From: Candidatus Hydrogenedentota bacterium
GTDB taxonomy: Bacteria; Hydrogenedentota; Hydrogenedentia; Hydrogenedentales; SLHB01
NCBI GenBank assembly: GCA_045863295.1
Contig: BTWA01000026.1
Coordinates: 1 to 64,000, forward strand
Reading direction: 5' to 3'
Length of the DNA stretch: 64,000 bases
Under the pieces are notes generated by a model that was not told the DNA's origin, ran no database searches, and was given only the letters and a program-made list of their open reading frames with translations. Within the stretch, counting starts at the first letter, position 1, and each line of letters opens with the position of its first letter. Positions 6,742 to 40,446 of this stretch are shown here, piece by piece. Made by a program: the position numbers and the translations under genes.

Positions 6742-6822
<81 letters not shown>

Positions 6823-11824: not shown

Positions 11825-14800
11825 CTACTTCTCACCTCCGTCATGCCCTTTGGGTCCCTCCAAGCGAAACAGGAGCAAGTGCTCCGCAGAAGAACCGGCC
11901 CACGTCCAGCGAGCCGACGAGACGGTCACATGTTGCAACGAAGCTGGAAACCATGCGCAATCGAGTAGAGATTCTGCGCAAAGCACGGCAGTCGTATATC
12001 CTTGTGTAAACGTTAACCAGCGATATCCTGCCGCGGCGTGGGACACTGATGTCGTATCTCTCACATTCTCGATTCTACGTATACACTCGCCCGATTTGGC
12101 ATCCCAAAAATGAATATCAAACCAGCGTCCTGTCCCCGTCCTCCTGTGAGAAGCAGAAATGACGCGCTGGTCGTCTATCATGAAAGCTACATCTAGCACG
12201 TGGCTTCTGTGCCCTCGCAAGACCATCAATTCCATTCCGGTGTCTAAATTCCAAACTCTTGCAGTCTCATCCATTGACCCTGATACAACATGATTACCAC
12301 TGTGCGAAAATGCGGTCGAGGTGACATCCGAATCATGACCGCGCAGTACGACAAGTTCTCGACCGGAATCCAAGTCCCAGATTCGAACGGTACCGTCACG
12401 CGATGCCGAGCCAATTCGGCGCGTATCCGGCGAGAGTGCAATACTATGTACCCACTTGGTGTGCCCACAAAGAACCGCGAGGTCATCCAGTAAGTAGCCA
12501 TCCGAAACATGAATATTATGGGTGGGCGAATCATACGCGATTATGCGTGAATTTGGGGAGAATGCAACACTATTCGGCGGGCTCGGATCTCCGGTTTCCA
12601 ACGTGTTCAATGCTCTATCTGAGTTTGCATCCCAAATCTTGATAGTCCCACCATATGAACTTGATGCAATAAACTTTCCGTCCGGGGAGAAGGCAACATA
12701 CTTTATGGCGTATTGATGCCCCCTGAGTGTCTGTAGCAATACCCCCGTGTCTCTATCCCAGAGTATGATGTTGTTGTCGGCTGCGCCAGAGGCGATACGT
12801 CGCCCATCTGGCGAGAATGCGGCCGGGCTTGATCCTTGGTTACCGCAAACGGTCCTTAGCTCAATCTTGTTCTGAACGTCCCATAGGTGGACGTAATTGT
12901 AGTCACCCGAGACGATGTAGTTGCCATCCGGTGAAAACGCCACGTGCGTGACGAGCCATTCGTTCGCTTGCAGTGTATAGATTCTGGCTCCCGAGCGTAC
13001 ATCCCACACCTGGATAGAGCCATCGAATAAGCCGACGGCTATGCACTTTCCATCAGGCGAAAAGGCCACGTCGGTATACTTGTTCGGCCCGCGAAACACG
13101 CGAAGTTCGTTTTTCGAGTCGACGTCCCACAGGCGGACCGTATTGTCATACGATGCAGAGGCTACGCATTGTCCATTCGGAGAAAACGCGACGCTGGTCA
13201 CAAAGTCCTCATGGCCGCGCAGAACGCCCGTTTGCATACCAGTTCGTATGTCCCAAATCCGTACAGTCTTATCGCCACAGGAAACGATCCGATCACCTTC
13301 CGGAGAGAAACTAACCTGATTAACTTGACTTTCGTGGCCGCGGAGCGCGAGTACCTCCCTCTCCGTTCGCAAGTCATATAGTAGTACTGTTTTGTCTTCA
13401 GATGCGGTCAGGATGCGGAGAGCGTCTGGCGAATACACGAAGGGGCCACACCCGTGTTCAGACCGCACGGTCCTTAGGTTGATTCCCGTCTCAGAATCCC
13501 ACGCTTGCCATGCCGAATTATTTGCCGTAATAATCCGAAATCCGTCGGGTGAGAACTCAAGCTTCTCTGCCGAACTGCTTGGTAGTTTAGTCAGGGTCTC
13601 ACCGCTGGCGATGTCCGTAACTAAGGCCCCATCTCTAGAACAGGATACGACTCGCTGTCCGTTAGGGGAGAAAGCGACGTTTGCAACGGGAGATTCGTGG
13701 GCTTTTACGACGCGAGTTAGCGTTCCCGTCTGTGCATTCCACAGGCACATTGTGTTGTCTCTAGAACCAGAGGCCACGCAGTCGCCTTCCGATGAAAATG
13801 CGATGCTTTTTATGTCAGATCGGTGTTCATTAAGCTCGTCCATTGTGTATAAGACTTGTGTGTCCCACAATATAACAACGCCGTTAGAAGACCCTGAAGC
13901 GATTTGCTTCCCATCAGGGGAAAATGCAGCAGTTTCGACATAATCTGTGTGGCCGCAGAGCAAACCCAACTCGGTGCCAGTATCGGAATCCCAAAGCCGA
14001 AGCGCTTTCATACTACCGGAGGTAGAGGCGCCCCGGTGCGAGCCGAGCGCCAAGGCTAATGGGAGATCCGTCTTAGGAAATCTGAACAACTCTATGTCGG
14101 TGTCGGCGCCTAGATCCCAAAACCGCACAGTACCATCGCCCAGCACGAATACGATACGGAGCGCGTCCGATGTGAACTCCAGTGATATATCTTTCGCGAT
14201 ATCGCCGAAATCTGAGCACGACCTCCCCAAGATGAGTGACCGTTCCCCGTTCCGTGAATCCCACAGCTTTATTTCAGAGCCTCCCATCGACGCGACACTA
14301 TTGCCATAAGGAGAAAACGCCACGCGCTTCACTTCTCCGTTATGATGGTGCAAGACTCGCATCTCTGACCCTGATTCCGCACCCAAGATATGCACTGTGC
14401 CCTCGTCTGTGCCGAATACGACTCGCCCCCCATCGGGTGAGAAGGTTACATTCGACGATGCGAATATGTGTTGCTTAGTAAACAAGGGGATCCCCCCAGC
14501 GACATCCCACACATTCACGGTGCCAAATGTCGAGCGTGAAACGATGCGCCTGCCATCAGGTGAAAATGAGATGCTTTCAAACTCCTCTTCTTCACGACTA
14601 CGCAACACATTCAACTCGGCACACGTGACCGCATCCCAAATGCGAATTGTCATATCTGTAGAGCCGGAGGCTAGCAGTCGTCCGTCCGCTGAATACGCCA
14701 CGCTCAAAACTCTAGACAGCGATTCGTGACCGCACAATATGCCCCTAAGGGAAGAGCCCAAATGCAGTTTCTGTGGCCGCAAAGTGCGAAGCCAATAGAA

Positions 14801-15115
14801 TTTCGGAGTCAAATCCTCCTTTCTGCGGTGCCACAATTCCATAAGTGCATGCAACTTCTGGCCGGAGTGGTTCCAGTGGCGTTGTTCTGTGTCCGGATTC
14901 TTCTCCGGTACGTTGTAGTGATTCTCCGCCTCGGGGCAGTCATACCACCAACAGAGGTTCCACATGCATTGGAAAAGCGTGGTGGGGTGGCAGTCGATGA
15001 AGCGGATGTCGCGGCGTATGGCTTCTTCGAACAGTTCAAGCGTGCGGCGCTTGGGGTGATCGCGCGGGATCGTAGCGAGGGCGTCGCGAAAATCGCGCGC
15101 GAGATCAAAGATCAT
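11825..15115 (-). CDS. WD40-repeat protein, cassette 1
   Basis: 1096 aa with about 20 'GH...V..VAFSPDG..IASGS.D.TVR.WD' repeats. ATG overlaps the upstream NACHT stop (ATGA). Confidence 0.92.
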   Translation of the reverse strand: MIFDLARDFRDALATIPRDHPKRRTLELFEEAIRRDIRFIDCHPTTLFQCMWNLCWWYDCPEAENHYNVPEKNPDTEQRHWNHSGQKLHALMELWHRRKEDLTPKFYWLRTLRPQKLHLGSSLRGILCGHESLSRVLSVAYSADGRLLASGSTDMTIRIWDAVTCAELNVLRSREEEEFESISFSPDGRRIVSRSTFGTVNVWDVAGGIPLFTKQHIFASSNVTFSPDGGRVVFGTDEGTVHILGAESGSEMRVLHHHNGEVKRVAFSPYGNSVASMGGSEIKLWDSRNGERSLILGRSCSDFGDIAKDISLEFTSDALRIVFVLGDGTVRFWDLGADTDIELFRFPKTDLPLALALGSHRGASTSGSMKALRLWDSDTGTELGLLCGHTDYVETAAFSPDGKQIASGSSNGVVILWDTQVLYTMDELNEHRSDIKSIAFSSEGDCVASGSRDNTMCLWNAQTGTLTRVVKAHESPVANVAFSPNGQRVVSCSRDGALVTDIASGETLTKLPSSSAEKLEFSPDGFRIITANNSAWQAWDSETGINLRTVRSEHGCGPFVYSPDALRILTASEDKTVLLYDLRTEREVLALRGHESQVNQVSFSPEGDRIVSCGDKTVRIWDIRTGMQTGVLRGHEDFVTSVAFSPNGQCVASASYDNTVRLWDVDSKNELRVFRGPNKYTDVAFSPDGKCIAVGLFDGSIQVWDVRSGARIYTLQANEWLVTHVAFSPDGNYIVSGDYNYVHLWDVQNKIELRTVCGNQGSSPAAFSPDGRRIASGAADNNIILWDRDTGVLLQTLRGHQYAIKYVAFSPDGKFIASSSYGGTIKIWDANSDRALNTLETGDPSPPNSVAFSPNSRIIAYDSPTHNIHVSDGYLLDDLAVLCGHTKWVHSIALSPDTRRIGSASRDGTVRIWDLDSGRELVVLRGHDSDVTSTAFSHSGNHVVSGSMDETARVWNLDTGMELMVLRGHRSHVLDVAFMIDDQRVISASHRRTGTGRWFDIHFWDAKSGECIRRIENVRDTTSVSHAAAGYRWLTFTQGYTTAVLCAESLLDCAWFPASLQHVTVSSARWTWAGSSAEHLLLFRLEGPKGHDGGEK

Positions 15116-17637
15116 GTATTGGCTCCAACGCTCGCCGACGGTGGTTCATCCGAACTAAGTTCGACAAAGTTCGGATCCGCTTCCGCTTTGGCCTCAAGGA
15201 ACTGCCAATCCAAGAGCAGTTCCGCTACTGCATCCCAATAAGGCGAGTTTGCGTCGTCTTTGCCGCCAATCTTCGCTGCCTCGAGTCGGTGGTACGGAAG
15301 TTCGACCACTTTTCGGACGTTGGCCGGGCGCGGGGTAGGCGGGAGACGTTTCGCCCGGGCGCGTTGGGCATCAAGGGATTCCGCCCAGAAGTCGAGTCCA
15401 GCAAAGTAATCCCCAAGCCGTACATGGGCTGCCAGCAAGGCGGCCTCGTCGGAACCAAAGTAGCGCGCCGCGACGGCTTCGCCCACTTGGCGATGATAGA
15501 AGTTCATGACGACCGTTCCGTCCGCGCGCCGCTGCACCATGTACGGCCGCAGATCGGCGAAAAGCCGTGACCAGATCACAACCGGCAGTTGCTTGATGCG
15601 GTTTTCAGGCTTCTTCTCGCGTTCCGTCGGGGATTGATCACAAAACCAATTCATTACAGAATCATCTTGAGAAAGGATCTCCACCAGTTCGTCTTCCGTC
15701 AGGCCGTTCTTGCTCGCGGCGATGTTACCCAGCGCGCGTTCCACCAACAGCCTTCCATGATGCCGCGGGTCTTCGATCCGGTGAAGCATGTCAACCAGAA
15801 TACCCTCGACGTTCCCCTCCAATCCGGGAACCGTGTCCGATCCGCAGGGCAGACCACTCCAGGATCGCCAGCTCTTGGCCTCCTCGAAGGCTACCTTCAG
15901 GTAAAGGGGCCTGCCATCGACACCAAACTTCTGGAGTATGTCCGTGCGCTGGGCCGCTTGCAGCGTTCGGCCTTCATCCTGCAGCCAGGCATCCAGCAAT
16001 CGCGCCCCATCTTCCCGCGCGAGGCGCCCCACTTCCAAAAGCGATTCAGGCCATATTCGCCGGGCGACATCGAAGGGACCGTAGATCGTGGCCCTGTTGT
16101 CCACCGCTGTCGACGTCTCTCCTTCCAGCACCGAGAGCACGAGCTTAACGCCGGAAGCGAGTTCCCGGGGAAGCCAGTAGAGCATCCGCGCGTTGTCGGT
16201 CGGGTTCAGTTGGTCCAATGCGTCCAGAAAGACAACGGCTGGAGCAGTGGCTGACTGTGTCTCGCCCGGTTGCTCGGAACCGGCCAGGCGCTCCCGGAAT
16301 GCCTTGACGAGGTCGTTCATCTCTGTGGGGGGAGTCTCTATCTCAAGCTGCTCGCACAGACTGCGCAGTAGCGACCTCAAATCGGCAGACCCGGGCGTGG
16401 CCCCGATAAACCGCATGACTGCCTGCTCAGGATTGGTCTTCGTCAGCCATGCCCGCGCCATCAAAGCGGTCTTACCCGAACCGGAGACGCCATGAACCAC
16501 CAGCGGTTTCCGGTCGTCGCGGTCGTTCAAATAGCGTTCGATACGGGCGAGTTCATCGTCCCGTCCTATAAAGTGCAGGCTGCGCTCCTGGCCGAACTCT
16601 TGGTGCGACTCCTTTTCCCGCTCCAACTCGGCCAAGTTCTTATAGGCATCAAGTTCGGAATCGATAATCGCCTTGAGGTCCGCCTCGACGCGATTGCACA
16701 AGGCTGTCAGGTCCGGCTCTTCCTCGATCGTCAGCTTCGGTCGCGGATCCTGGTTGCGGAACGCGACGCGGTCCCACGCTACGGAGTATTCAAAAGCGTT
16801 GTGAACCGGCAACCGCTTCTTCAATTCGGCGCTGAGTTCGTCAAGGTCCGCCTTGTCCATACCCCCATCGACGTAACCGCGCGCCGCACCATCCGCGGGT
16901 GGCTTGTCAATCGTTCGGAAATAGGCATAGACATGCCTGTCCGCATCGAGCGATTCGTGCAAAGCCCCGTGATCGATTTCCTGATGGGTGGCAGACTTCT
17001 CAAACATTTCGTGCATGGGGGTGCCCCGGTCAACTCCAAGTGTGTCCAGAGCCGTGAGCAGCAGTCGGCGCATCTCCGCCTCGATTCGGTGCCAATCCGC
17101 GGATTCATCCTTGCCAATCTGGATCTTGTCATCATCACTGACACCGTCCGGGTAATCGATCGTGCGCGGTTGCAGCACGTATTCGTGTGGCACTGCGTTC
17201 AAGTCCTTCCGGTACCACCCGATGCGTTGTACTGCTCTTCCTGGAATCCAACTCGGCACGTCGCTGTCCGTGGAGATCAGCGCGCGATCCGGCTCCGGAA
17301 CCGCGGCCAGAATGTCCTCGAACTCTTTTGCGGGCACGCGCCAAGGTAAAGGCCGCCAACCGTACCGCTCACCGAGCAGCACGATGAAATTCGGCTTGGG
17401 AGACAACTCCTGGCATCGCTCAAGTTCCTGAATGCAGATGTTCATCGTCTGCTGATCCAGTGACGCCTCGCTGCTGACGCCCCATCGGAGGTCGATGGCT
17501 TGAAAACGGGCGCCCCGCTGCTGGCAGTAGGTGCGCAACGCGGGAAATACTTTTTCCTGCAATGCATTCCGTTCGGCAATCAGGTCACTGAATGTCGAAC
17601 TTACAAAAACCCGGAAAGTCAGGTCCTTCCTTCCCAC
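15112..17637 (-). CDS. DUF4062-NACHT (STAND) protein without C-terminal repeats
   Basis: DUF4062 motifs 'FRVFVSSTFSD...ER', 'IDLRWGV', 'LLGERYGW'. Walker A GVSGSGKT, Walker B VVFLDALDQL, winged-helix 'GLTEDELVEIL...FYHRQ'. Ends 'LLLDWQFLEAKAEA' plus a short tail. GTG start after AAGGGGGT. Confidence 0.9.
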   Translation of the reverse strand: MGRKDLTFRVFVSSTFSDLIAERNALQEKVFPALRTYCQQRGARFQAIDLRWGVSSEASLDQQTMNICIQELERCQELSPKPNFIVLLGERYGWRPLPWRVPAKEFEDILAAVPEPDRALISTDSDVPSWIPGRAVQRIGWYRKDLNAVPHEYVLQPRTIDYPDGVSDDDKIQIGKDESADWHRIEAEMRRLLLTALDTLGVDRGTPMHEMFEKSATHQEIDHGALHESLDADRHVYAYFRTIDKPPADGAARGYVDGGMDKADLDELSAELKKRLPVHNAFEYSVAWDRVAFRNQDPRPKLTIEEEPDLTALCNRVEADLKAIIDSELDAYKNLAELEREKESHQEFGQERSLHFIGRDDELARIERYLNDRDDRKPLVVHGVSGSGKTALMARAWLTKTNPEQAVMRFIGATPGSADLRSLLRSLCEQLEIETPPTEMNDLVKAFRERLAGSEQPGETQSATAPAVVFLDALDQLNPTDNARMLYWLPRELASGVKLVLSVLEGETSTAVDNRATIYGPFDVARRIWPESLLEVGRLAREDGARLLDAWLQDEGRTLQAAQRTDILQKFGVDGRPLYLKVAFEEAKSWRSWSGLPCGSDTVPGLEGNVEGILVDMLHRIEDPRHHGRLLVERALGNIAASKNGLTEDELVEILSQDDSVMNWFCDQSPTEREKKPENRIKQLPVVIWSRLFADLRPYMVQRRADGTVVMNFYHRQVGEAVAARYFGSDEAALLAAHVRLGDYFAGLDFWAESLDAQRARAKRLPPTPRPANVRKVVELPYHRLEAAKIGGKDDANSPYWDAVAELLLDWQFLEAKAEADPNFVELSSDEPPSASVGANT

Positions 17638-17720: not shown

Positions 17721-18731
17721 CTAAATGCCGTCACCCGGCAGAGCCTGAGACTCAAACCCCACCCCCAGATTAAAGTTGGTTCCAGTCGTGCCCGCACGGA
17801 TCAGTGGAGTGATACCGACGTTGTCTTCCCAGAAATCCTGGGCAACGGAAGTGTCATAGAAGCCGCCGAACGTGAGCACGAAGGCATCGGCTTGGAGGAG
17901 GACTTTCAGCGACGGTTTGTACGCGGCTTCAATGGGCGCGTGTCCCTGGGCGGCGGAATCGACCTCGTTGTACTGGCCTTTGACATCGATGGACAACATG
18001 TCGGTCAAGTCCGCGGGGAAGTGAGCAGGTTGCAGGGGCGGATACCAGTCAAAGTTGAAGCCGTTGGCGACGACCGCGGCGTACTCCATGTCGCCGGTGT
18101 CGCCGGCGCCTCCGCTGAGGAGTGGGACATCGTCCAAGTAGTTCGATGCGATCTTGTACAGATTGAGATCGCCGGTCGTGTTGTCGATTGCGCCGTCCAG
18201 AGCAACTGACATTGAGCCTTCGCCGGCGATTGACTTCGTCGCCCAGTCATACGTGAATGATATGTTGAGGGTCCAGGCGCCGTAGGTGCTGCCGGTGCCC
18301 GAGGAAACGTCGCCCGACAATTTGACTTCGATTCCATCGCTCATCGCATTGATCGAATCCACCGCGCTATGCCCGAGCACGGCGCCCGCCATAAATGGTT
18401 GCGGATACCAAGTTGACCCCCAGCCATCCGGGTCTACACCGGGATGCGGACGAAACGCCACCGCACCGTTGGATACGATTAGCGTCCCAAAATGACGAGG
18501 CGTTCCGTTCTCGACGAGCTTAAGACGGTACTCCAGTCCCGCCCCCGTTTGAAGCGAACTGACCACATAACCGTCTGGTGTGACCGTGCAATCGGTAAAG
18601 CATGCCACCCCGGCCAAGAGGATCAGCGTAAATACCGCAGCAAAAACGCCTCGTTGAAGCCTCCGGAAATCATGGTGGTCTCTGCATGCAATCTGGCCAA
18701 AATCAGATTCTGACTGCTTTCCCATGCCCAA
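17721..18731 (-). CDS. Hypothetical exported or membrane-anchored beta-rich protein
   Basis: 336 aa with a hydrophobic segment near the N-terminus and an acidic Gly/Asp/Thr-rich body. RBS AAGGGGG. No family recognised. Confidence 0.7.
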   Translation of the reverse strand: MGMGKQSESDFGQIACRDHHDFRRLQRGVFAAVFTLILLAGVACFTDCTVTPDGYVVSSLQTGAGLEYRLKLVENGTPRHFGTLIVSNGAVAFRPHPGVDPDGWGSTWYPQPFMAGAVLGHSAVDSINAMSDGIEVKLSGDVSSGTGSTYGAWTLNISFTYDWATKSIAGEGSMSVALDGAIDNTTGDLNLYKIASNYLDDVPLLSGGAGDTGDMEYAAVVANGFNFDWYPPLQPAHFPADLTDMLSIDVKGQYNEVDSAAQGHAPIEAAYKPSLKVLLQADAFVLTFGGFYDTSVAQDFWEDNVGITPLIRAGTTGTNFNLGVGFESQALPGDGI

Positions 18732-19053: not shown

Positions 19054-21738
19054 TTACAATCCCCAATACGACAGCTCTGGGCTGAAAGAGGGGCGGCGCC
19101 AGTCTTCCCAGCGTTCGACAATTTGCTGGAACTTTGGGTCGTCGCGGACGCCGGGGAAATGAGATGCGGTGCGGAGCACGGTGCCGAGAATCTCTTCTTG
19201 GCGTGCGGAGTCTGATATGATGCGCGCTTCGACCAGGAGTGCGCGGACGAGTTCTTTGGGATGAAACCGCTCCATGAGCGATTGAGCAATCCGCAGATTG
19301 CGGAGGGCGTCCCTCTCCGTGTGCTGACACTTGGCGCGCTGCAAGTACGAAGGGGCCTGAATTACACCAGCCTCCTCCCGGTACGCAATGTTCTCATCCA
19401 GAATCTGTATAGCCCGTGGCACATCGCCGCGGCGGCGTAGCACCTCGGCCAGTGAGTCCCCAATTCGAGCAATAACGCGCTTCTCGGAAAGACCACTCGT
19501 TTCCAAGGTTAGTGCCTCGCAAAGGACTTCCTCTGCGCGTGAGTTCTCCTCTTGTCCTAGGAGGTAAAGCCCGAAGTACAAGCGCTCGATTGCAGTGAAA
19601 CCGCGTTGTAGAGGCGCCAATTGCAGCGCTTCGAACTGTTCATGCGCGCGTTTGACGATTGGATGCGGAACCAGTCCAATTGCACATCCGGCCTTTTGAA
19701 GGTCGGTGTAGTGCGGGCCAGCCGCAGTAGGCCAATCGAAGAGTCGTATCCCCCATGCGATCGCCTCCGTATCCCCCGCTTCCGCGCCAATCCAGCACTG
19801 CAATCGATCAAACTCCTCGCGGGCGCGCGGACGTTGTAGACTACGCCGGTCGATGGAAGCGCGAATGCCATCAAGGGCGGGTACAAATCTTCCCTTCTGG
19901 TAGTTGTCCGACAATTGGATGAGGTCAAGGACAGGCACTGATGTTTCGTCTGTGTGTGCCGCGACCCAACGACCCAGTTGTGCCACAATCGGAAGTTGGT
20001 GCCACGAATCGTATCTGGTCTCGTTGGTAATGAGGTACAGTACACGTTCAAGATTGCTGATTGCGGCATCGAAATCGACTCCACGCGCAACAACATCGTA
20101 TTCAGCAACGCCGACAACGACACAGGGCGGCCCGTCGGCCGGAGCGATGTCCCATCGATCTACACGCAGGTCAAGCACGCCCCCATGCGTGCCGATGCGC
20201 GCGCGCTCTGGCGGGCGCTTCGCGTGTGCGCAGGCCGCGAAGACGCCAGGGGCGAGCGATTCGGTTCGCTTCGGGTCCGCCGCGATCGCCATGGGCCAAA
20301 CGCGCTCCCGTAGCGCCCAACGTACAACGGTTTCAATGCGTTCATCCGACCCCGTAGAGCCATACGGGCAATGTGCGAGCATCCAAGCGACGGCTTGTTG
20401 TCGGCAGTACGGCACAAACCGCGGCCCGAATGGGTCAGTGGATGAGAGCGCCAGAAGGACGCCCCCCGCTTCGATAGACGCAACGGAACGGTCCGCGGTG
20501 TTGGACGCAGTCCACCATGCGGTCTCGAGTTCACCTATTTCCAGGTGAATTTCCGCGCGATAGCCGGAGACTTGTACATTCTTGCGTTCCAAATACCTGC
20601 CTTCAATATTGAAAAGCGCTTGATTTCGATGCATATTCGCAACCTCCGATTCGCGGCGCTTCGTGTAAATCCGGTACAGCGCGTGGTGTGCCCGGGCGAG
20701 CACACTCCTTCGAAGTTGAAAACTCATGCTGTGCGCCGCCCCATCGGTCTGTGACCGTGTCTGTTCGATGCGAATGCATTCCTGCAGCGAACTTTCACTG
20801 TTTTTGCCGCCTTGGTTGCGGCCGTGTTCGAGTAGCGCCAGCGCCAGGAAGTGTGCCGTATTAAACGTGGCGTACCGCGCGTCCATCGCACGGGCCAGAC
20901 GAATAGCGCGATCGTAGTCGCCGGCTTCGCAGAAGAGCTGGACGAGTGCCAACGCGCCGCGTTCTGGTACGCCATCGCCGCTGGCGATGCGGAAGAACTC
21001 ATCGAATAGAACGTTGTCCGGTACGGCAGCAGCGCTCGTTGCCAGGTCGTGCACTACAGGGCACAACCAGCCATTTGGCGCATACTGGGATTCGAGGAGT
21101 GCGAACACACGTGGAAGAACCGGGGCGGCTAGCGCCCGCCAATGCGCGGCGGCACTGGGATCCCGCTCGATTAGCGTTGCAATCCCGGAGCACCATACAG
21201 GCACTGCAATTGCTTCGGGCGCAACCGAAATCATGTTCTTGAAATGCGCTTCGGAAAGACAGAAATCACGCAGCTCTACAAACCTCTGCGCGGCGGCGAG
21301 AAACCGGGGAGCATATGACCACGCAAGTGGCGCGGCGGACGACGGCAGCGCCAACGCGGCCGTTGCCATATAGTGTGCGCCTGCTCGCTGTACGGCCTGG
21401 TCGATGGCACACTGGGACCCAGAAATGCGTTGCTTCCAAGTCCAGGTCATTTCGACGAAGGCGGCCGAGGACTCAGCAACGTCTCTGGACAACAAATCGT
21501 TTATCCCTTTCTCGACCTCATGTTGCTCCCTCTTTGATCCTGTTCCGCACGCGATGGCCGCTAGCACAAGTTCGTTGCGTTTGATTGGGCCCGGCAACAC
21601 ACTCAGCATGCCAACCAGTTGCCTGACGCGCGACGCATGCCCCGGGCCGCTGGCTAGGCGTTCGATCTCCGAACACACATCCTTCTCGTCGGGGTGCGCA
21701 GTCAACGCCGATGCCCAATAGGCTTGGAGCGGGGTCAT
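19054..21738 (-). CDS. Hypothetical helical-repeat (TPR-like) protein, last gene of the Pup-like operon
   Basis: 894 aa with an ATGA overlap to the pafA-like gene. TPR-like segments 'LVQLFCEAGDYDRAIRLA' and 'LAEVLRRRGDVPRAIQILDE'. Confidence 0.75.
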   Translation of the reverse strand: MTPLQAYWASALTAHPDEKDVCSEIERLASGPGHASRVRQLVGMLSVLPGPIKRNELVLAAIACGTGSKREQHEVEKGINDLLSRDVAESSAAFVEMTWTWKQRISGSQCAIDQAVQRAGAHYMATAALALPSSAAPLAWSYAPRFLAAAQRFVELRDFCLSEAHFKNMISVAPEAIAVPVWCSGIATLIERDPSAAAHWRALAAPVLPRVFALLESQYAPNGWLCPVVHDLATSAAAVPDNVLFDEFFRIASGDGVPERGALALVQLFCEAGDYDRAIRLARAMDARYATFNTAHFLALALLEHGRNQGGKNSESSLQECIRIEQTRSQTDGAAHSMSFQLRRSVLARAHHALYRIYTKRRESEVANMHRNQALFNIEGRYLERKNVQVSGYRAEIHLEIGELETAWWTASNTADRSVASIEAGGVLLALSSTDPFGPRFVPYCRQQAVAWMLAHCPYGSTGSDERIETVVRWALRERVWPMAIAADPKRTESLAPGVFAACAHAKRPPERARIGTHGGVLDLRVDRWDIAPADGPPCVVVGVAEYDVVARGVDFDAAISNLERVLYLITNETRYDSWHQLPIVAQLGRWVAAHTDETSVPVLDLIQLSDNYQKGRFVPALDGIRASIDRRSLQRPRAREEFDRLQCWIGAEAGDTEAIAWGIRLFDWPTAAGPHYTDLQKAGCAIGLVPHPIVKRAHEQFEALQLAPLQRGFTAIERLYFGLYLLGQEENSRAEEVLCEALTLETSGLSEKRVIARIGDSLAEVLRRRGDVPRAIQILDENIAYREEAGVIQAPSYLQRAKCQHTERDALRNLRIAQSLMERFHPKELVRALLVEARIISDSARQEEILGTVLRTASHFPGVRDDPKFQQIVERWEDWRRPSFSPELSYWGL

Positions 21739-23423
21739 GGGTGTGACCCCTCGACGCCCAGCGGCGTGTATTCGACGGCCCGAATTGAAGCGAGGGAATT
21801 GCGTTCTACTAGGTACGCCCGCAGCGATGTGAATGGATGCCGGTCGTCCTTGGACTTAAGTTGCCGCTGCGGAATGGGTCCCCATTCAAATGACCCCGAA
21901 GGGCCTGGAGCCCGCAAGTCCAAAACGCCGCGCCGGAGACTTCGCACTTCCTCCCAGTTGGCCTGCGCCTCTTCCCCATTTCGGGCGAGATCGAGGATGG
22001 CGTTTGCACGTATATGACAACGGCCTTCCTCCTCGGGTGGCGGCTGATGGCATTGGCCATCCAATTGGCTATCGGTGAACAGTACGCCTGGTGCGGCGAG
22101 GCCCGAATCCGTGAGCTGATGAAACAGACCTCCCCTCATAATATCTCCGTACTCGTATGCGATGGCCATGAACTTGCGCATCGCCAGTATGTAGCGGTCA
22201 AGCACATCGGAATCCGGCCGTCTCCAGCGCGTGACACCCACGACATCGCTTGATGGACAAGGTCCAGGTGTTCGTTCATTCGCGACAATCTTCTGCCAAA
22301 TGGCCTGTGCATTCCCCTTGCGGACAAGAGCGCGCCGCGCGGCGCGGGCGGACTTGAGTGGTATGTCGTGCGCGTCGAGCGTACGATTCCACAGTTTCCA
22401 CAACGTCGCGTGGTCGCAAAGCCCCTCAAGCGCGACAAGTCCGCCGTCATTGAGTTTGGTCGCAATCTCGGACACGTTCTCCAATTCCTCGTCGGCCCAC
22501 TGGGGAAGTGGCGTGTCCTTCTTGCGTTCGCGAATCCAGTCGCAATACGTGAGCAGCAATTGTACCCCCGTCATCCTCCTGCCGTCGGCCAGCCGGTAGA
22601 AGTGCGCCAGGTTCGCCCCGGCAACCGCACAGTGCAGATCGGTAACAGGCTGCGCCAACTCGATTCGAGGCGCGCCCTCAGGGTGTGTTTCGAGGCACTG
22701 TACAAGCAGATGGACTGCCGCGTACACCGCTCGGGTCTGCAGGTGCGATTGCAAGTTGTCAATCCCCAGCAAATGCTGGCGGCTGCCGTGTGGCGCGGGA
22801 ATCTCCTTTGTGTCCACAATGCCCCGGCGCGTGCTGGTATGACCCGACGTCATCGCGGTACAGCGCATTGCGCGGAGTGACATCGTGAAATCAAATGTTC
22901 GCAGGTCCAGTCCACCACCACCCGACAACAAGGGGAGAACGGACATGAACGTGCACAAGTCCGGCATGAGTGTATGAACGGGCACGGATCGGCCGATATT
23001 GAAGTGGCCAGCCGTGCTATGGTCAATATCCTCGAGGTTATACGCCGTGTTGTGCTGAGAAATGACGAGCTGCGATAGCGACAGCGCCTCGCGCACTCGT
23101 GTACCCGCCTCTGCGATGACGGTGCGCAAGAGCGCGCCTTGCAGGGTAGCCCCCACCGGCGTGCGACAATCGGCACATGCGGCCTCAAGCAGGCTCTCAA
23201 GTTCGGCATAGACGTGACCATGCGCGAGAAAAAGCCCCTTCGACTCCTTCGACGACGCTACCGACGGCAAAGCGCCAAGTTCTTCCATCATTCTGTCGAC
23301 GAGAAGCTTTGGGTGCACGACCTGGCCGTGCGCGTCACGCGCCATAATCGTCAGTTCGCGCTCATCGCCGTGAAGCCGCTGTGTTCCCATTGTAGTCATG
23401 ATTGTGTCAAGGGGGTCCGTCAT
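21735..23423 (-). CDS. PafA/Dop-family (Pup-ligase fold) protein, probable ligase
   Basis: Collinear family motifs: G-D-E-R-E (GxExE), 'LFLAHGHVYAE..LLEAACADC', 'HNT...AGHFN', 'MSLRA', 'RRGIVDTKE', 'RQHLLGID', 'LADGRRMT', 'YGDI..GLFHQL', 'PPP...GR..IR', 'NW'. Confidence 0.82.
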   Translation of the reverse strand: MTDPLDTIMTTMGTQRLHGDERELTIMARDAHGQVVHPKLLVDRMMEELGALPSVASSKESKGLFLAHGHVYAELESLLEAACADCRTPVGATLQGALLRTVIAEAGTRVREALSLSQLVISQHNTAYNLEDIDHSTAGHFNIGRSVPVHTLMPDLCTFMSVLPLLSGGGGLDLRTFDFTMSLRAMRCTAMTSGHTSTRRGIVDTKEIPAPHGSRQHLLGIDNLQSHLQTRAVYAAVHLLVQCLETHPEGAPRIELAQPVTDLHCAVAGANLAHFYRLADGRRMTGVQLLLTYCDWIRERKKDTPLPQWADEELENVSEIATKLNDGGLVALEGLCDHATLWKLWNRTLDAHDIPLKSARAARRALVRKGNAQAIWQKIVANERTPGPCPSSDVVGVTRWRRPDSDVLDRYILAMRKFMAIAYEYGDIMRGGLFHQLTDSGLAAPGVLFTDSQLDGQCHQPPPEEEGRCHIRANAILDLARNGEEAQANWEEVRSLRRGVLDLRAPGPSGSFEWGPIPQRQLKSKDDRHPFTSLRAYLVERNSLASIRAVEYTPLGVEGSHP

Positions 23424-23453
23424 CGGAGACGATGGCGGACCCCGATTCCCTAT

Positions 23454-23660
23454 TCACTGGCCCGATTGCTGCGTTTTTGAGAGTTCCTGGAACCGCTGCG
23501 GATCACAGTTCAACATGCGGTCAACGATAGCGTTGGTCCGCTCGTGGATCCGGCCGAGCCTCGGCGATTCCTTGTCGATTAGATTCTCGATCGGTGGCGC
23601 CGTATCCGTTACGACCGACTCGTGCTCTCCAACCAATGGTTCCACAGAGGTCTTTGTCAT
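23454..23660 (-). CDS. Pup/UBact-like small protein modifier ending -SGQ
   Basis: 68 aa with a polar/acidic N-half, helical-looking 'IVDRMLNCDPQRFQELSK' and C-terminus QQSGQ. Lies between two PafA/Dop-family genes, with an AAGGA RBS and an ATGA overlap with the dop-like stop. Confidence 0.8.
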   Translation of the reverse strand: MTKTSVEPLVGEHESVVTDTAPPIENLIDKESPRLGRIHERTNAIVDRMLNCDPQRFQELSKTQQSGQ

Positions 23661-25273
23661 ATCGCATTCCTTTCTGTTGCTGCCGGATCTAGACCCGCGT
23701 GATTGCCGCAGGCCCCTTTCCGGTCATGCGGTATATGGGCTGCACCGAGCATCTCAAACGATTGAATAATTTCATCCGTTGAAGGGCTTGCGAGGATGTG
23801 CTCGCAGTCCTGTCGACGGAGAAAGTGCGGGTCCGCAAACCACACCGAATATGTCTTTCCGTCGCGGTTCCGGCGAACAACAGTTTCGTCCCAATTCACG
23901 CGGACCACCGCGTACTCGGGATCATTCGCAACCCGTCGCAGAAACATCGCGTGTCCCCAGGACCGGGTGCCCTCCGGAGGTGAATCCATCGCACGCATGA
24001 TGGCCCCATCTTCGACTTCTCGTATCGTCGCACCTGCTTCCTGCTCCGCAAGAAACAGACTGTCCTCTGGATCGGCGCTTCCGTAAAGCTGATCGAGCAT
24101 TGCGATGTGTGGCGAAGCCCAGTTCAGTCCTTGCCCATTGGCGATGGCATGGGAAAGGATACGGCGCTTGTTTACCCAATCGATGCGAGGCGACAGGAAG
24201 TCCCAATCCTTGCGAAGAAATGCGTCGCTCAATGCCGCAGCAGCGTCGAGGACTGCGGCCAACTCCAAAACATACTGGTCCAAGCCGCGCTCAGATGAGA
24301 CCTGAATAAGCAGCGCTACCAGTTTTGCAAGGTATTGGTCCGACGTAACAAACGTACCGTCCGCCAACTCGGCCCGCGTCGTCAAGGTTGGATCGTGACT
24401 CCACTGCCACAAAGCGTTCACCGGGTCCGCCAGAATCAGGTGAGACACGGGCGTCTCCTCCGTAACCGCCGCCAATAACGCCGAAACTATCCCCGAGGTG
24501 ACGAAAAGCGCGTGTTCATTCAACGGGAAGTCAAGGCAGATGTGGTGGAAGCGCGCCCACGGGTTTCGCATCGAATCGACGGGACCGCACTCCGCCTCAT
24601 CCCGCGTGTTGATCAGGCCGCGCCCTTGACGCCCCATCGTGTCGAGGCAGGCAACTTGCGTTATGAAGTCGGACCGCTGCGCAATCTGAAACGCTACCTG
24701 TGGGCGGCGGTTCGCCGCGCCCACACACCCTTGCCCGGCGACAAGCTGGATTCCCGCCATGGCCGATGCGACGAAGCCGGTCACTGCGGGATACTGGCCG
24801 GAACAAATCCGGTACCAGGTTTCTGAGGGTACGAGGTAGTTGTAGTGCGTTCCGATGGAAACCGCGTCGGGCCCGCGCCCGCACCGGCATTCGAATAGAA
24901 CGACGATGTGGGATCCATCGGCCGCGGCCTCGTTGCACGCGCGCTGTGCCTCGCGAACGCGCCGCCGGGTCGCCCCCGTATACGCGACCAGGTCCCGGGG
25001 GCCCGCACACAGCGGCACGCATGTCTCGAGGTGTCCGAGTTCCGAGTAGTAGCATGCGCCGTTGCGAGGGTCATAACGGCGGCCCAGGTCTAGCGGCGCA
25101 AACCGCCAGAAACGCGCCTTGGGGTGCGCCGGCACACCAGGCAGGCATTCGAGCAACTTCGTATCGAGAAACGGCGCTGCGGAGTGCCCTTCCCGAACCA
25201 TTTGGAAGTGGCTGATCTCCGTGTCCGCGCCGAGGAGGATGGTCTTAGGTCTATGTACAGGTGAAGCACACAT
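23657..25273 (-). CDS. PafA/Dop-family protein, probable Dop-like deamidase/depupylase
   Basis: 'LGADTE', 'RNGACYYSELGHLE', 'GTHYNYLV', 'FQIAQRSDFI', 'RGLINTRDE', 'RFHHICLD', 'LADPV.AL...SHDPTL...ELADG', 'IDWVNK', 'PPEGTRS', 'VNWD'. Start moved to ATG 25273, just downstream of the sigma-54 promoter. Confidence 0.87.
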   Translation of the reverse strand: MCASPVHRPKTILLGADTEISHFQMVREGHSAAPFLDTKLLECLPGVPAHPKARFWRFAPLDLGRRYDPRNGACYYSELGHLETCVPLCAGPRDLVAYTGATRRRVREAQRACNEAAADGSHIVVLFECRCGRGPDAVSIGTHYNYLVPSETWYRICSGQYPAVTGFVASAMAGIQLVAGQGCVGAANRRPQVAFQIAQRSDFITQVACLDTMGRQGRGLINTRDEAECGPVDSMRNPWARFHHICLDFPLNEHALFVTSGIVSALLAAVTEETPVSHLILADPVNALWQWSHDPTLTTRAELADGTFVTSDQYLAKLVALLIQVSSERGLDQYVLELAAVLDAAAALSDAFLRKDWDFLSPRIDWVNKRRILSHAIANGQGLNWASPHIAMLDQLYGSADPEDSLFLAEQEAGATIREVEDGAIMRAMDSPPEGTRSWGHAMFLRRVANDPEYAVVRVNWDETVVRRNRDGKTYSVWFADPHFLRRQDCEHILASPSTDEIIQSFEMLGAAHIPHDRKGACGNHAGLDPAATERNAI

Positions 25274-25286
25274 AGGACCGCACAGG

Positions 25287-25302
25287 AGCAATGACCATGC
25301 CA
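25287..25302 (-). promoter_or_regulatory. sigma-54 (-24/-12) promoter of the Pup-like operon
   Basis: Minus strand reads TGGCATGGTCATTGCT, matching TGGCAY-N5-TTGCW with exact GG-N10-GC spacing; adjacent to a divergent sigma-54 activator gene. Confidence 0.8.
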
Positions 25303-25452
25303 TACGAAGTTTCCGATGTAAGTCGTTTCGCCACGGAGGATCGGTGCAGCGTTGGGCTGCAACCTTGCAGTTGGCGCGCCCATCCCAATCGTTGCATTGC
25401 AGCAAACCTTTCCGTACCATGCACTGGGGTGGGCGATTGGGGGATTACAGCG

Positions 25453-27108: not shown

Positions 27109-27322
27109 GGATCACCAAAGAATGAACTGGCACCCACGTTCCGCAACGCAGGAGCCAACCAAACCTTTGGCCCAATACAACACCAACCAAGCCCAAGACT
27201 TGTGGGAAGACAACGCGATTATCTCCCCCCTCATCCGCCAAGACAATCCGCGCACCGAGTTCCGGTTCAAGTTCAAGCGGCAATCGAAACCACAAACCGG
27301 GGACAGGCCGTAGGAGACCTGC

Positions 27323-34641: not shown

Positions 34642-34919
34642 GCTACGCCCCAAGACCAATCGACACATCAGGTGTGGTGTTGACAGAAGAAATTGCAAAG
34701 CTGACGGAACTGCTCGCGGAAAATGCCCACGAGCATTGGGCCAAGCAGCGTCTCAGCGATGGCTGGCGCTACGGTCCCACGCGGGACGATGCCAAGAAAG
34801 AACATCCCTGCCTCATTCCCTACGGTGATCTCCCCGATTCCGAAAAGACATACGACCGAAAAATGGCCATAGAAACCCTGAAGGTAATCCTGGCCCTCGG
34901 CTATCGCATAGCGAAATAG
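34638..34919 (+). CDS. Stand-alone RyR (ryanodine receptor repeat) domain protein
   Basis: 93 aa 'YAPRPIDTS.V.L...LAENAHEHWA..R..DGW.YG..RDD..K.HPCL.PY..LP.SEK.YDR'. ATGA overlap with the upstream stop. Confidence 0.92.
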   Translation: MSYAPRPIDTSGVVLTEEIAKLTELLAENAHEHWAKQRLSDGWRYGPTRDDAKKEHPCLIPYGDLPDSEKTYDRKMAIETLKVILALGYRIAK

Positions 34920-34961
34920 ACGATTGATACGGACCAATTAACGATTTCGAAAGGAGGCCGC

Positions 34962-37812: not shown

Positions 37813-39678
37813 TCACGCCGGCAGGTGCGGTCCGTGGAACGCCAGCGATGCGGCCCACTCGTAGTTCTCCGAGGCCATGATGTCGCTTGCCGTTCGGACG
37901 TGGGCGCGAATTTCGTCGGGGGTTTCCGCTTTCCGAAGGTCCTCGGCGACATCGTTCAACAACCTCGCCATATTCGCGGACCGGCTCGAGATCCGCTCGC
38001 CATCGAGCAGGGTGTTGATCGCCTGAAACGTTGCGCCCCACAACGGCAGCAGCACGGTGATGCCAAACAGGACGGCCGTGACCGTGCCCATGCCATGCTT
38101 GCCCGGTTCGCCGTGGCCGATCCCTATAGCGTGGAAGAAGGCGGCTACCAGCGTCAGCGAGAAGAGCACCAGTCCCACGCGGTGCAGCGTCTTTGGCAAC
38201 TTCAGTTTCCTCTCGACATTATCCATGTGCCATTGGGCCTGCGGCGTGATCCAGTCCTGCTCGATGAAATCTCGCAATGCCAGCCACCCGGCCTTTTCGT
38301 CCGCGGGATGTAGCGCGGGGCCGGAGGCGCGCATGATGGCCACGTCCACCCAGTCCGCGGGCCGCCGGTAAAAAGGAAGGTGGGATACATCGCGGCGTTG
38401 CCCCGACGCGGTCATTTCGCCCAGCAAGTCCGTGTACAATTTCGCGCGCAGGCGCTCGGCGAAATGGCGGTCGTGCAGCCATTTTTCGTGCCAGCGCTCC
38501 TTTCGCGATATGCGCAGCAACGCCAGAATTGCGACCATCGCCAGCACTTCGAGAAAGGCCGCCGCATACCACGACGGCGCAAACAACATCTGCATGACGG
38601 AAACCGTTACGCCGGAAGCGGCGAGTGTAAAAAGCCCTCGCGCGCTTCTAAAGTGCAGATTCTGGTAGTGAAGCGACAACACGTCGCTCCGGGCATAGTG
38701 CGCCAGCGTTTGCCATGTCTTGTCATTGAGAACCCACTCCGGCGGGTGAGTTTTCTGCGCGGTGTCCAGCATCGAATCCTGGTGTTCGCGAAATTTCCGC
38801 GCAATCGATTCCGCCGAAACCGCGGTGTCGCGGTTGTACGCCGCCAGCGCGTGATAACTTGGCGAAAACTCCTTCGCAGTCTGCGGGAGTTCGCACGTTT
38901 TCAATTTGACTGGCGTCTCTTCTGAATCGGAAGATTCCGGCACTACTAACTTCGCGGGAGTTCGAGGGTTGTCCGCGTTAATCCATAGAATGGTTCGCCC
39001 GTGCAGCAGCGCGTGCTTCACGATATCGCCGGTCCCCCCCCATCCTTTGGCGGGTTTCCCGTCCCACACGGCGATGAGTATGTCGCACTGGTGCACGACC
39101 AACTCGCCCGCTTCCCGGTACAGACAGTCTCGATTCGAACCGTGCGCGTCCAGCATGCCTGCGATTCCCGGCGATGCGTCCAGCGCGAGGAGCTTGCGAA
39201 ACGCCTCCAAACTCGGCGCGTCGAAATCGTGTTCGTATTCCTCGGCATCAAACGGTAGAACCACCTGCAATTGGGAGTCCTTCCGCGCCAGTACAGCCTC
39301 CGCCACGATAATGTCCGCGCCCTGCGCCAACGCCGAAACGACGCGCCATCGCAATGGTGTCGTCATGGACGGATCGACCACGGCCGGTGTCACCGGTACG
39401 GCCGGCCAAATCCACTTCAGCGCGGCAACCAACGCCCGATCGGCCCGCCTCTTGATGGTCTGTTGATTGGTGTGTGGCCCAAGCGGATTTGATCCAGCCG
39501 ATTCCAGCACGCGCTGGACATGATCCAACAGCGCGTCCACGGCCAGTCGCACGCCCGCTTCATCTCCCAACGCCCGATGGCCTGTCACGCCGATCCGCAA
39601 CTCGTACGGTATGGGTTCAGGCAGGCCGACGGAACTCGCGGAACTCCCGCTCGTTTCACTTCCCACTACAGGAGACAT
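37813..39678 (-). CDS. SLOG (YspA-like) domain fused to two SLATT-type 2TM domains
   Basis: SLOG motifs 'IGVTGHR', 'SALAQGAD', 'VVLPF', 'CDILIAVWDG....GGT.D.V'. Two 2-TM units, followed by 'W...R..AERLR' and 'IM.SEN.EW'. Start at ATG 39678 after GAGGG. Confidence 0.8.
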   Translation of the reverse strand: MSPVVGSETSGSSASSVGLPEPIPYELRIGVTGHRALGDEAGVRLAVDALLDHVQRVLESAGSNPLGPHTNQQTIKRRADRALVAALKWIWPAVPVTPAVVDPSMTTPLRWRVVSALAQGADIIVAEAVLARKDSQLQVVLPFDAEEYEHDFDAPSLEAFRKLLALDASPGIAGMLDAHGSNRDCLYREAGELVVHQCDILIAVWDGKPAKGWGGTGDIVKHALLHGRTILWINADNPRTPAKLVVPESSDSEETPVKLKTCELPQTAKEFSPSYHALAAYNRDTAVSAESIARKFREHQDSMLDTAQKTHPPEWVLNDKTWQTLAHYARSDVLSLHYQNLHFRSARGLFTLAASGVTVSVMQMLFAPSWYAAAFLEVLAMVAILALLRISRKERWHEKWLHDRHFAERLRAKLYTDLLGEMTASGQRRDVSHLPFYRRPADWVDVAIMRASGPALHPADEKAGWLALRDFIEQDWITPQAQWHMDNVERKLKLPKTLHRVGLVLFSLTLVAAFFHAIGIGHGEPGKHGMGTVTAVLFGITVLLPLWGATFQAINTLLDGERISSRSANMARLLNDVAEDLRKAETPDEIRAHVRTASDIMASENYEWAASLAFHGPHLPA

Positions 39679-40446
39679 GATCTTCCCTCGCACTGGAACG
39701 CGCGACGCAGTCTACGCGCGGAGAATTGCGTCAACCGCGCCCGCGGACCAATTGCCGGGCGAGTCCATCCATTTCCTTGATCACGTGCAGTCGACCTGCG
39801 CGGTATCGTTTCTGAGTTTCGTATTGCGGCCAGAACCCGGCAGGTCAACGAGACTCTTCACGGTTTCCACGTCATCGCACACCCCCCAGAATGTTGTGTC
39901 TGTGGATCCTATCGACAACCACTCCATAAATCAACGGACTGCAATTTCAAATTCAACAGTACTCAACAACACCTCTACTAGGCGTTCAGTAGCCTCAACA
40001 CGCATCAATCTCGTTTGGCGTGGTAACTCTACCTCCAGATGTATACTTTGAGACCACTAACAATCCCGCTCATTGGACATCTTGCGGCACATCCTGAAAT
40101 CCCGAACATGCAGCTTAACCGCTACAGGAGTCCATCGCCGGAACTCCTTAACCTGGACCGCCAAAGCGCAGGAGAAGGAGTTTCACGGTGGACGATTTCG
40201 ACGGTCAAAGCCATGCCACATGGGATCGCAGATACCACATACTGCTTCTCCCTAAGCTCTGGAGAAAGGTGTTGTACCGGTAATTGCGAAAGCAACTTGA
40301 AGGAATATTTCACTGATTGGCGGGGCAAAAGGAGTGCCGGTTCAATAGGGCATCAAATGGCCGAACATTCCTTCAACCACACATCCGGTCACAGGCGCTA
40401 GGCTCCGTGTTGCCAATTGCCGTTTCGGCTTAAGAAGATTGTTCTA

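Follow-up and report, generated by a model that had tools for sequence, protein, structure and literature searches.

Pupylation is known mainly as a signal that directs proteins to the proteasome. An operon in the genome of a Candidatus Hydrogenedentota bacterium (GenBank assembly GCA_045863295.1) raises the question of which other functions a Pup-type tag may have. The operon lies on the minus strand of a 64,000-nucleotide (nt) window (positions 1 to 64,000 of contig BTWA01000026.1). It comprises, in order, a Dop-like gene (gene 1), a gene for a small Pup-like tag (gene 2), a second gene of the Pup-ligase family (gene 3) and a gene for a long helical-repeat protein (gene 4). We think it fairly probable that these genes encode a Pup-like protein-conjugation module that is independent of the proteasome and of the Mpa unfoldase and is under sigma-54 control. 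An intact, conserved Pup-like module would then have lost its proteasome and unfoldase and gained a sigma-54 switch and an adaptor resembling the sensor arms of STAND proteins, and with four genes the question is directly testable.

Operon structure and conservation

All four frames of the operon are intact. Stop and start codons overlap as ATGA at the junctions of genes 1 and 2 (23657-23660) and of genes 3 and 4 (21735-21738), and 30 bp lie between genes 2 and 3. The order, the two couplings and the gap had been described in a first-pass annotation of this DNA, and we confirmed all of them in the sequence. A gene for a sigma-54 activator is divergent from the operon.

In a scan of metagenome contigs, complete synteny was found at a single locus, L095, which lies on a contig of 1 Mb. 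It keeps all five genes (the divergent activator, both enzymes, the tag and gene 4) with intact frames, at identities of 38% for the activator over its full length, 43% for gene 1, 38% for gene 3 and 35% for gene 4 at full length. The recurrence of the same five genes in the same order makes the arrangement more than chance. We refer to the tag and locus type of this operon and of L095 as type C, and to that of non-actinobacterial sister loci, described below, as type B. Two further database proteins, one gene-4-like (P0128) and one gene-1-like (P0008), share the same longest-contig figure, 9697 bases, which suggests a third co-located instance without amounting to proof.

Short pieces nearly identical to this DNA occur in contigs from sludge, activated sludge and bioreactors. 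In four DNA runs, each of a different study, the listed pieces show 0-2 differences, so that a fault of one assembly does not explain the sequence. Among the sequencing runs listed for this stretch there is no RNA run.

Absence of a proteasome and its unfoldase

The first-pass annotation noted that neither a proteasome gene nor an Mpa/ARC ATPase gene is visible in the window and proposed a search of the host genome for prcA, prcB and arc. The absence holds in the window and extends to the whole genome bin (6.3 Mb in 88 contigs, 96.25% complete). No 20S subunit is encoded genome-wide, as the sole match to PF00227 is HslV (NCBIfam 282 bits vs a cut-off of 137). Mpa/ARC is also missing genome-wide; seven AAA proteins match TIGR03689 partially, the best at 139.6 bits vs a cut-off of 504.75, and no protein in the genome matches the PF16450 (Prot_ATP_ID_OB_C) domain at E <= 0.1. 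Nothing in the genome exceeds the cut-off for Pup (PF05639). The Pup_ligase family (PF03136) is represented only by the two genes of the window, and the genome has no other Pup-ligase gene.

The two Pup-ligase-family enzymes

The longest frame of gene 1 spans 23657-25420, and its 49 codons upstream of the Met at 25273 run across a promoter-like element. In an alignment with the six closest relatives this Met is invariant, and we take it as the start of a 538 amino acid (aa) protein. An earlier placement of the gene boundary at 25302/25303 is corrected accordingly to 25273; position 25302 marks the promoter-like element. The gene 1 call in the database (P0005, 514 aa) starts 24 codons late, which cuts off the GhExE-type ATP-binding motif.

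Gene 1 matches Pup_ligase at 191.8 bits (curated cut-off 25 bits) and falls below the NCBIfam Dop equivalog TIGR03688 (163.8 bits vs a cut-off of 492.3). By sequence comparison, its nearest solved relatives are Dop structures (9cku_G, 1.4e-30), with PafA at 1.7e-16. In a quick IQ-TREE phylogeny of 64 rows, gene 1 and six relatives form one clade with a Shimodaira-Hasegawa-like approximate likelihood ratio (SH-aLRT) support of 100. Its sister group is made up of 14 sequences from type-B loci, all of them first paralogues (SH-aLRT 100), and both groups share the Dop side of the tree with canonical Dop (SH-aLRT 94). The description of gene 1 as Dop-like is upheld by its family score, its placement in the tree and the presence of the catalytic motifs.

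These motifs are, as set out in the available text of Iyer et al. (2008; PMC2588565), GhExE, acidic residues on strands 2 and 3, [HQ]x[NH], [QH]x4D and two Arg. Alignment indicates that genes 1 and 3 keep all of them, together with the Mg ligands that the legend of Fig. 6 in Cui et al. (2021) gives for Acidothermus Dop. In gene 1 they read GADTE (with Asp for the first Glu), YSE, HLE, HYN and HHICLD, with one Arg in QRSD and the other in GRGLIN; in gene 3 they read GDERE, YAE, LLE, HFN, HLLGID, R184 and R200. The catalytic Asp of strand 2 is replaced by Glu in both genes, and is Asp in some relatives of gene 1.

Gene 3 is the more divergent enzyme. It matches Pup_ligase above the cut-off (73.6 bits) and scores 37.2 bits vs a cut-off of 551.3 for the NCBIfam PafA equivalog TIGR03686. 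Its AlphaFold2 model has a mean predicted local distance difference test (pLDDT) of 77.4 and a predicted template modelling score (pTM) of 0.80. The model matches Dop (5lrt) at E 5e-18 with template modelling (TM) scores of 0.66/0.78 (0.78 by target) and the PafA-Pup complex (4bjr) at E 2.8e-16; fold matches also include YbdK and glutamine synthetase (GS). In the ESM Atlas, gene 3 finds Pup_ligase clusters at 0.95 with a TM score of 0.81. Both enzymes thus exceed the Pfam threshold, and the fold was modelled for gene 3; we regard the fold and family of the enzymes as settled.

In the tree, gene 3 and its L095 orthologue lie outside the canonical PafA clade (13 rows), beside the ligase-position paralogues of type-B loci, and together with these second paralogues stand apart from canonical PafA and Dop (SH-aLRT 93). 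Searched by tblastn against type-B loci, gene 3 finds its best match on or after the tag, and never on the Dop-like gene, in all 11 loci with a match. The term PafA-like, used in the first-pass annotation, therefore holds for the position and fold of gene 3 and fails for membership of the PafA clade. Lineage and position together would make gene 1 the deamidase and gene 3 the ligase. Three co-folding runs of gene 3 with the tag gave 0.01, 0.86 and 0.00 without controls, and weigh neither for nor against this assignment.

The tag

The gene 2 product has no Pfam match at E <= 1, including to Pup (PF05639), and no NCBIfam match. It nevertheless has the descriptive features of Pup that Iyer et al. 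(2008; PMC2588565) list in the text available: 50-90 residues, a C-terminal G-[EQ], and a gene beside a PafA homologue. Gene 2 encodes 68 aa with an SGQ end and lies between the two enzymes. The closest homologue (P0125) is also 68 aa long, is 68% identical and has the same QQSGQ end; the L095 tag (P0126), likewise between both enzymes, has 70 aa, is 31% identical and ends QTSGQ. Thus, the three known type-C tags are 68-70 aa long and all end SGQ, and the small tag ending in G-Q between a pair of Pup-ligase-family genes, as first proposed, is confirmed, with its GQ end kept in 3 of 3.

Small open reading frames (ORFs) from the loci that we retrieved fall into three tag types: canonical Pup, type B and type C. 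Type-B tags mostly end GGQ or GGE; type-C tags end SGQ and have one extra residue between the conserved Phe and the end. In profile comparisons, type C aligned with type B over 32 columns reaching the C-terminus (E 2.5e-4, probability 43%), and type B with canonical Pup at E 1.2e-7 and probability 94%. The tag keeps the helical binding segment of Pup-like tags. The case for homology of the type-C tag to Pup is made through these type-B intermediates, together with synteny.

In one Planctomycetota type-B locus (L024:9620-10762) the tag frame is open for 380 codons, with proline-rich repeats upstream of the Pup-like end.

The solenoid protein and its predicted partnership

Gene 4 is modelled with good confidence by AlphaFold2 (pLDDT 88.7, pTM 0.87) as an alpha-solenoid. 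We distinguished a winged-helix-like part (residues 35-97), a long alpha-solenoid, a four-strand unit (507-553) and a TPR-like C-terminal third. Pfam returned TPR matches only, all sub-threshold. Foldseek found no specific structural relative in the PDB; the matches are generic TPR scaffolds, Ctr9, Ski3, IFT-A and subunits of APC/C, at TM scores of 0.24 or less, and Avs3 stands at rank 23.

Sequence searches were more informative, and yielded 34 relatives (E <= 0.001) in a set of 1.84 billion representatives. Six of the 19 homologues scanned with Pfam have an N-terminal Pup_ligase domain fused to a gene-4-like C-terminal module. Within gene 4, the stretch matched by the fused modules begins at about residue 590-735 and extends to the end; residues 586-894 of gene 4 align with a module carried behind Pup_ligase domains. 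One of the fusions (P0147) is 29% identical to gene 4 over 329 residues and has the same WGL end, and the long ligase-position paralogue of type-B locus L024 carries such a module as well (E 6e-5). As Pup-ligase domains elsewhere carry a homologue of its C-terminal third fused behind them, the gene 4 product is probably the adaptor of the ligase.

Three further relatives are proteins of 1376-1388 aa with TIR_2 and NACHT/NPHP3_N domains, one of which also has a winged-helix (HTH_TANC1) domain. Their alignment with gene 4 begins at residue ~138-158 and takes in all of the remainder; for P0132, identity is 27% over 780 residues (E 1e-46). Residues 150-894 of gene 4 are homologous to the arm that follows the NTPase in these TIR-NACHT proteins, and this homology to STAND sensor arms suggests that gene 4 is a ligand- or target-recognition arm. 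The homology of gene 4 both to the Pup-ligase module and to the TIR-NACHT arm is new here. It provides a concrete hypothesis for how such ligases choose targets, and links Pup chemistry to bacterial immunity of an NLR-like kind (NLR, nucleotide-binding and leucine-rich repeat). We also considered kinship of gene 4 with the two STAND proteins of the window and rejected it, as no similarity was found.

The gene-4-like arm makes up the whole post-NTPase part of TIR-NACHT proteins, and parts of it occur behind two TIR-only proteins and a Ser/Thr kinase (P0132-P0134, P0138, P0142 and P0143 for all of these together). It is a shared sensor or adaptor module for which there is no Pfam model.

Probable sigma-54 control

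Sigma-54 promoters have GG at -24 and GC at -12, and the contact loop of their activators carries the motif GAFTGA. Directly upstream of gene 1 we identified TGGCAT-N5-TTGC (25302-25288 in the operon direction), which has one mismatch to the consensus and ends 15 nt before the ATG. The L095 counterpart, TGGCCC-N5-TTGC, also has one mismatch. It ends 12 nt short of the gene-1 homologue's first ATG, and 33 nt beyond this ATG there is a GTG that has a GGGAG box. The pattern is not enriched across the window (84 matches vs 75.9 expected at up to two mismatches), so only the position of the motif counts. With one mismatch it occurs seven times in the window and twice in L095, and from these counts we estimate the chance of a right-strand motif inside the intergenic region at ~0.01 and ~0.007, respectively. 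The genome encodes rpoN. Control by sigma-54, as the first-pass annotation proposed, fits the adjoining activator, the motif in the same place in two diverged loci and the presence of rpoN. Thus, the operon is probably under sigma-54 control, with the element before gene 1 as its candidate promoter.

The activator has an N-terminal alpha/beta domain, an AAA+ core (Pfam Sigma54_activat, 9.9e-54) and no recognised helix-turn-helix domain. The contact loop departs from the motif, reading GAFTDG in the window and HSFTDA in the aligned L095 sequence. The best NCBIfam match is RtcR and the PADLOC match is RtcR_PspF2, both with the AAA part only. A CARF-like N-terminal domain, which the RtcR matches brought to mind, is unsupported, since the AAA part alone matches. 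Searches with the N-terminal domain gave weak receiver/VpsR-like and Rossmann-like leads (scores <= 0.83, TM < 0.5).

Several other features of regulation were seen. Elements of sigma-54 type with one mismatch occur upstream of the two DUF4062-STAND genes of the window, at 27128-27142 (+) and 17842-17856 (-); both are weak, with the mismatch in an invariant dinucleotide (-12 GC or -24 GG). Four of the seven one-mismatch matches of the window fall within the cluster of operon and STAND genes. Two stand-alone receiver-domain genes lie beside the activator in L095 (6707-8058), and the divergent intergenic region there has four copies of TCAACAC (9779-9841). The corresponding region of the window has other repeats, with inverted 11-nt arms at 25377-25387 and 25425-25435. 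A sigma-54 activator also lies 3 kb downstream in one type-B locus (L023:12873-14651). Its AAA core is 52% identical to that of the window activator; outside the core the two are unrelated, and no GAFTGA-like loop appears in the alignment.

Relatives, rarity and known systems

The family is extremely rare in the collections searched. Among 5.8 billion protein clusters, gene 1 has five relatives at 44-60% identity, followed by matches at 33% or less; among 53 other genomes of its taxonomic family, two give matches, all of them weak (28-32% identity). For gene 3, the 134 other genomes of the phylum yielded a single weak match, at 23% identity. Gene 4 has one word-index relative, 57% identical, from a metagenome-assembled genome named Candidatus Hydrogenedentes. 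Annotation could not have found the type-C system.

Type-B loci (L016-L035 and L051, e.g., L018:1725-11194) occur in several phyla. They contain a ubiquitin-like set (ThiF, two unnamed ORFs and JAB), an Mpa-like AAA gene, a Dop-like gene, a GGQ/GGE tag and a PafA-like gene. In each of the ten loci scanned, an Mpa-like AAA gene stands before the Dop-like gene, and in nine it also has a proteasomal-ATPase OB match; JAB genes were found in seven and ThiF in five. None of the 77 ORFs in these loci matches the proteasome family PF00227. The accessible text of Kaur et al. (2020) mentions a ubiquitin-like system coupled to a Pup system in one sentence, and that of Hecht et al. (2020) reports sporadic homologues outside Actinobacteria. 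A description of the type-C arrangement was not found in the literature on Pup/PafA conflict systems or on pupylation and anti-phage defence, in a search that left subscription journals mostly uncovered and excluded supplements.

Type-B loci are the closest relatives by sequence: gene 1 is sister to their Dop-like gene, the tags are related, and some type-B ligases carry a gene-4-like module as a C-terminal fusion. Unlike these, type C lacks the Mpa-like AAA, ThiF and JAB genes and has the TPR module as a separate, much longer gene. It is associated instead with the activator, a DUF4062-STAND gene and a SLATT-like gene.

The resemblance to the actinobacterial Pup-proteasome system lies in a G-Q tag beside two paralogous enzymes of carboxylate-amine ligase fold, one of Dop lineage. 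The Dop-tag order is also the same, and a terminal Gln implies deamidation before ligation. The differences are considerable. Here, 20S and Mpa/ARC are missing from the genome bin, the enzymes score far below equivalog cut-offs, gene 1 lacks the loop consensus of canonical Dop, gene 3 does not fall in the canonical PafA clade, and the Pfam Pup model does not detect the tag. The operon also adds the 894-aa TPR-like partner and the sigma-54 activator.

Corynebacterium carries out pupylation without a 20S proteasome, while keeping canonical Pup, PafA, Dop and the ARC ATPase. The type-C operon is similar in the lack of 20S, and differs in that its genome also lacks the ATPase and in that all parts are highly divergent. 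According to the text available of Iyer et al. (2008; PMC2588565), Plesiocystis and Rhodopirellula, outside Actinobacteria, likewise have Pup and ligase genes unlinked to proteasome genes. In those organisms the ligase contains a four-helix transmembrane insertion and is linked to a membrane protein; no such insertion shows up for gene 3 in the alignment.

Proposed function and alternatives

In the mechanism that we propose, a signal would activate the divergent enhancer-binding protein, which would drive the sigma-54 promoter directly upstream of gene 1 and give a nearly leaderless four-gene transcript. The gene 1 product would convert the Gln at the C-terminus of the 68-aa tag into Glu by deamidation, and would probably be able to take the tag off again as well. 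The gene 3 product would activate the gamma-carboxylate of the tag with ATP and join it to lysines of the target, which the TPR-like solenoid of gene 4, bound to the ligase, would choose. As the genome has neither 20S nor an Mpa/ARC-type unfoldase, the tag would act as something other than a proteasome degron.

Several observations weigh against this interpretation. With the bin 96% complete and in 88 contigs, a 20S or Mpa gene may lie on a missing piece. The tag has no Pfam Pup match, and in direct comparison with canonical Pup (11 tags, hhalign) the type-C profile is not significant (E 0.01, probability 4%). Full synteny is seen in the one relative inspected, L095. The branch of gene 3 is very long (4.65 substitutions per column), so that its position may be a long-branch artefact, and the alignment shows neither the His of HPE nor the acidic pair of NTRDE in this enzyme. 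The helical alpha-loop is tied to ligase activity in the available text of Hecht et al. (2020), and in gene 3 this segment (residues 188-204, block pLDDT 76-87) is modelled as strands, although a model does not settle a conformation of this kind; the model as a whole is also marginally nearer Dop than PafA. For these two reasons the gene 3 product could be a hydrolase or an enzyme of altered activity. Gene 1 in turn has ~26 residues at the site where Cui et al. (2021), in the text consulted, place a conserved Dop-loop of 40-65 residues before strand 2. These residues bear no resemblance to canonical Dop loops in the alignment, and the Dop-loop consensus is missing. Since loss of the Dop-loop favours ligase activity, according to the same available text of Hecht et al., the roles of genes 1 and 3 could be swapped.

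We consider it unlikely that the tag still marks proteins for degradation or unfolding, with some other AAA+ machine of the host (HslUV, ClpXP/ClpAP, Lon, FtsH or an unrecognised unfoldase) as its reader in place of Mpa-20S, though this alternative survives best. HslV is present, as are the seven AAA+ proteins with partial TIGR03689 matches. The Mpa-like AAA gene found before the Dop-like gene in every type-B locus scanned, with no proteasome gene linked, makes such an unfoldase the ancestral partner of the lineage. However, this ATPase has been lost from the type-C module in both loci inspected, and the Prot_ATP_ID_OB_C domain is missing genome-wide. In addition, no protein of the operon resembles a protease adaptor; gene 4 is related instead to STAND sensor arms.

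The 68-aa product might instead be a scaffold or precursor peptide that the carboxylate-amine ligases join, at its C-terminal Glu or Gln, to a small amine or amino acid, as happens in the chemistry of peptide natural products or cofactors. The superfamily does include small-molecule ligases, GCS2 and glutamine synthetase among them (Iyer et al., 2008, PMC2588565, in the text available), the gene 3 model also matches the YbdK and GS folds, and the divergence of gene 3 makes an altered amine substrate conceivable. We judge this to be quite improbable. The product has kept the length of a Pup-like tag, its helical binding segment and its G-Q end, the gene order is that of Pup systems, gene 4 is a scaffold for protein-protein interaction, and no transporter, peptidase or tailoring gene is conserved alongside.

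Least probable of all is that the operon is a decaying remnant of a type-B system in which gene 3 is a pseudo-enzyme and conjugation no longer occurs: the very long branch of gene 3, its lost positions and the extreme rarity of the family would fit, but all four frames are intact here and in L095 at 35-43% identity, the ATGA couplings are preserved, near-identical DNA recurs in the four runs of four studies, and both copies of gene 3 keep the Mg ligands and the motifs given in the available text of Iyer et al. (2008), the sole His/Gln change between the copies falling within the published [QH] motif.

Genomic setting

Coordinates of the operon and of the neighbouring genes are given in Table 1.

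Table 1. Features of the operon and its surroundings, in window coordinates.
Feature	Position	Strand	Remark
DUF4062-STAND gene (15112-17637) and WD40 gene (11825-15115)	11825..17637	-	Downstream of the operon; context only
Gene 4, alpha-solenoid/TPR-like, 894 aa	19054..21738	-	Predicted ligase adaptor or target receptor
Gene 3, divergent Pup-ligase-family enzyme in PafA position, 562 aa	21735..23423	-	Predicted tag-protein ligase
Gene 2, Pup-like tag, 68 aa, ends QQSGQ	23454..23660	-	Start overlaps the stop of gene 1
Gene 1, Dop-lineage enzyme of the Pup-ligase family, 538 aa	23657..25273	-	Predicted tag deamidase/deconjugase
Candidate sigma-54 -24/-12 element	25288..25302	-	TGGCAT-N5-TTGC, 15 nt before the gene 1 ATG
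Sigma-54 activator, 551 aa	25453..27108	+	Divergent from the operon; Sigma54_activat match
DUF4062-STAND-WD40 protein, 1436 aa	27323..31633	+	Pfam; co-occurs with the operon in both loci
626-aa protein with weak SLATT/DUF4231 matches	37813..39693	-	Co-occurs with the operon in both loci

By Pfam, the operon lies between two DUF4062-STAND units, the one on the gene 4 side with WD40 genes downstream. The available text of three 2026 preprints describes DUF4062 as a TIR-like NADase domain of anti-phage systems. The DUF4062-STAND-WD40 protein beyond the activator is 54% identical over ~820 residues to a protein of L095 (1643-6061). The 626-aa protein matches SLATT_1 of NCBIfam (8.6e-6) and DUF4231 of Pfam (0.0014), in both cases below the cut-off, and corresponds to L095 4-1314 by tblastx. 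In total, seven genes co-occur in the window and in L095, and the gene order differs between the two loci. The STAND neighbourhood mentioned in the first-pass annotation is seen as a setting rich in NLR-like (DUF4062-STAND) genes. None of the four operon proteins matches a defence model in PADLOC 2.0.0. Placement in a conflict-system setting is supported, and a defence role is plausible from this setting.

More tentatively, and with the balance leaning against it, the operon may serve an NLR-like immune island as its tagging arm. Gene 4, as a TIR-NACHT arm without its NTPase, would present an invader protein or an activated immune protein to the ligase. The tag would then neutralise, relocalise or regulate this target, and the sigma-54 switch would act during infection or stress, together with the DUF4062-STAND-WD40 and SLATT-like genes. 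Tagging of invader or STAND proteins, suggested in the first-pass annotation, is likewise hypothetical. The ubiquitin-like conjugation systems of anti-phage defence (CBASS Cap2/Cap3 and Bil/Bub) are inducible or defence-linked and use E1/E2 thioester chemistry. They resemble the type-C operon in placing a conjugation module beside immune genes, and differ in their unrelated folds, the chemistry here being that of acyl-phosphate carboxylate-amine ligases. We know of no defence phenotype for the type-C module. If the tagging-arm interpretation is true, the operon would be the first counterpart of these systems with Pup chemistry.

The region had also been called a mobile genomic island, a claim that gains little support: no ORF among those scanned has an integrase or transposase domain, the GC content is not deviant, and sporadic distribution is the only sign seen. 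The description as accessory and defence-island-like is justified, that as mobile is not. A tRNA-Met gene lies at 6742-6818. In a single comparison, a related genome (G013) has its ComEC and PLP-decarboxylase genes ~9 kb apart and in a different relative orientation, with no tRNA gene between them.

Other genes of the neighbourhood include a further WD40 gene (1384 aa, 7491-11645). The downstream DUF4062-STAND gene and the adjacent WD40 gene (1096 aa) overlap by 4 nt, and look like an NLR-like protein split into its NTPase and repeat parts. Between the STAND gene beyond the activator and the SLATT-like gene, two consecutive genes (32881-37748, +) end in RyR domains, the first of them with a TrkA_N domain as well.

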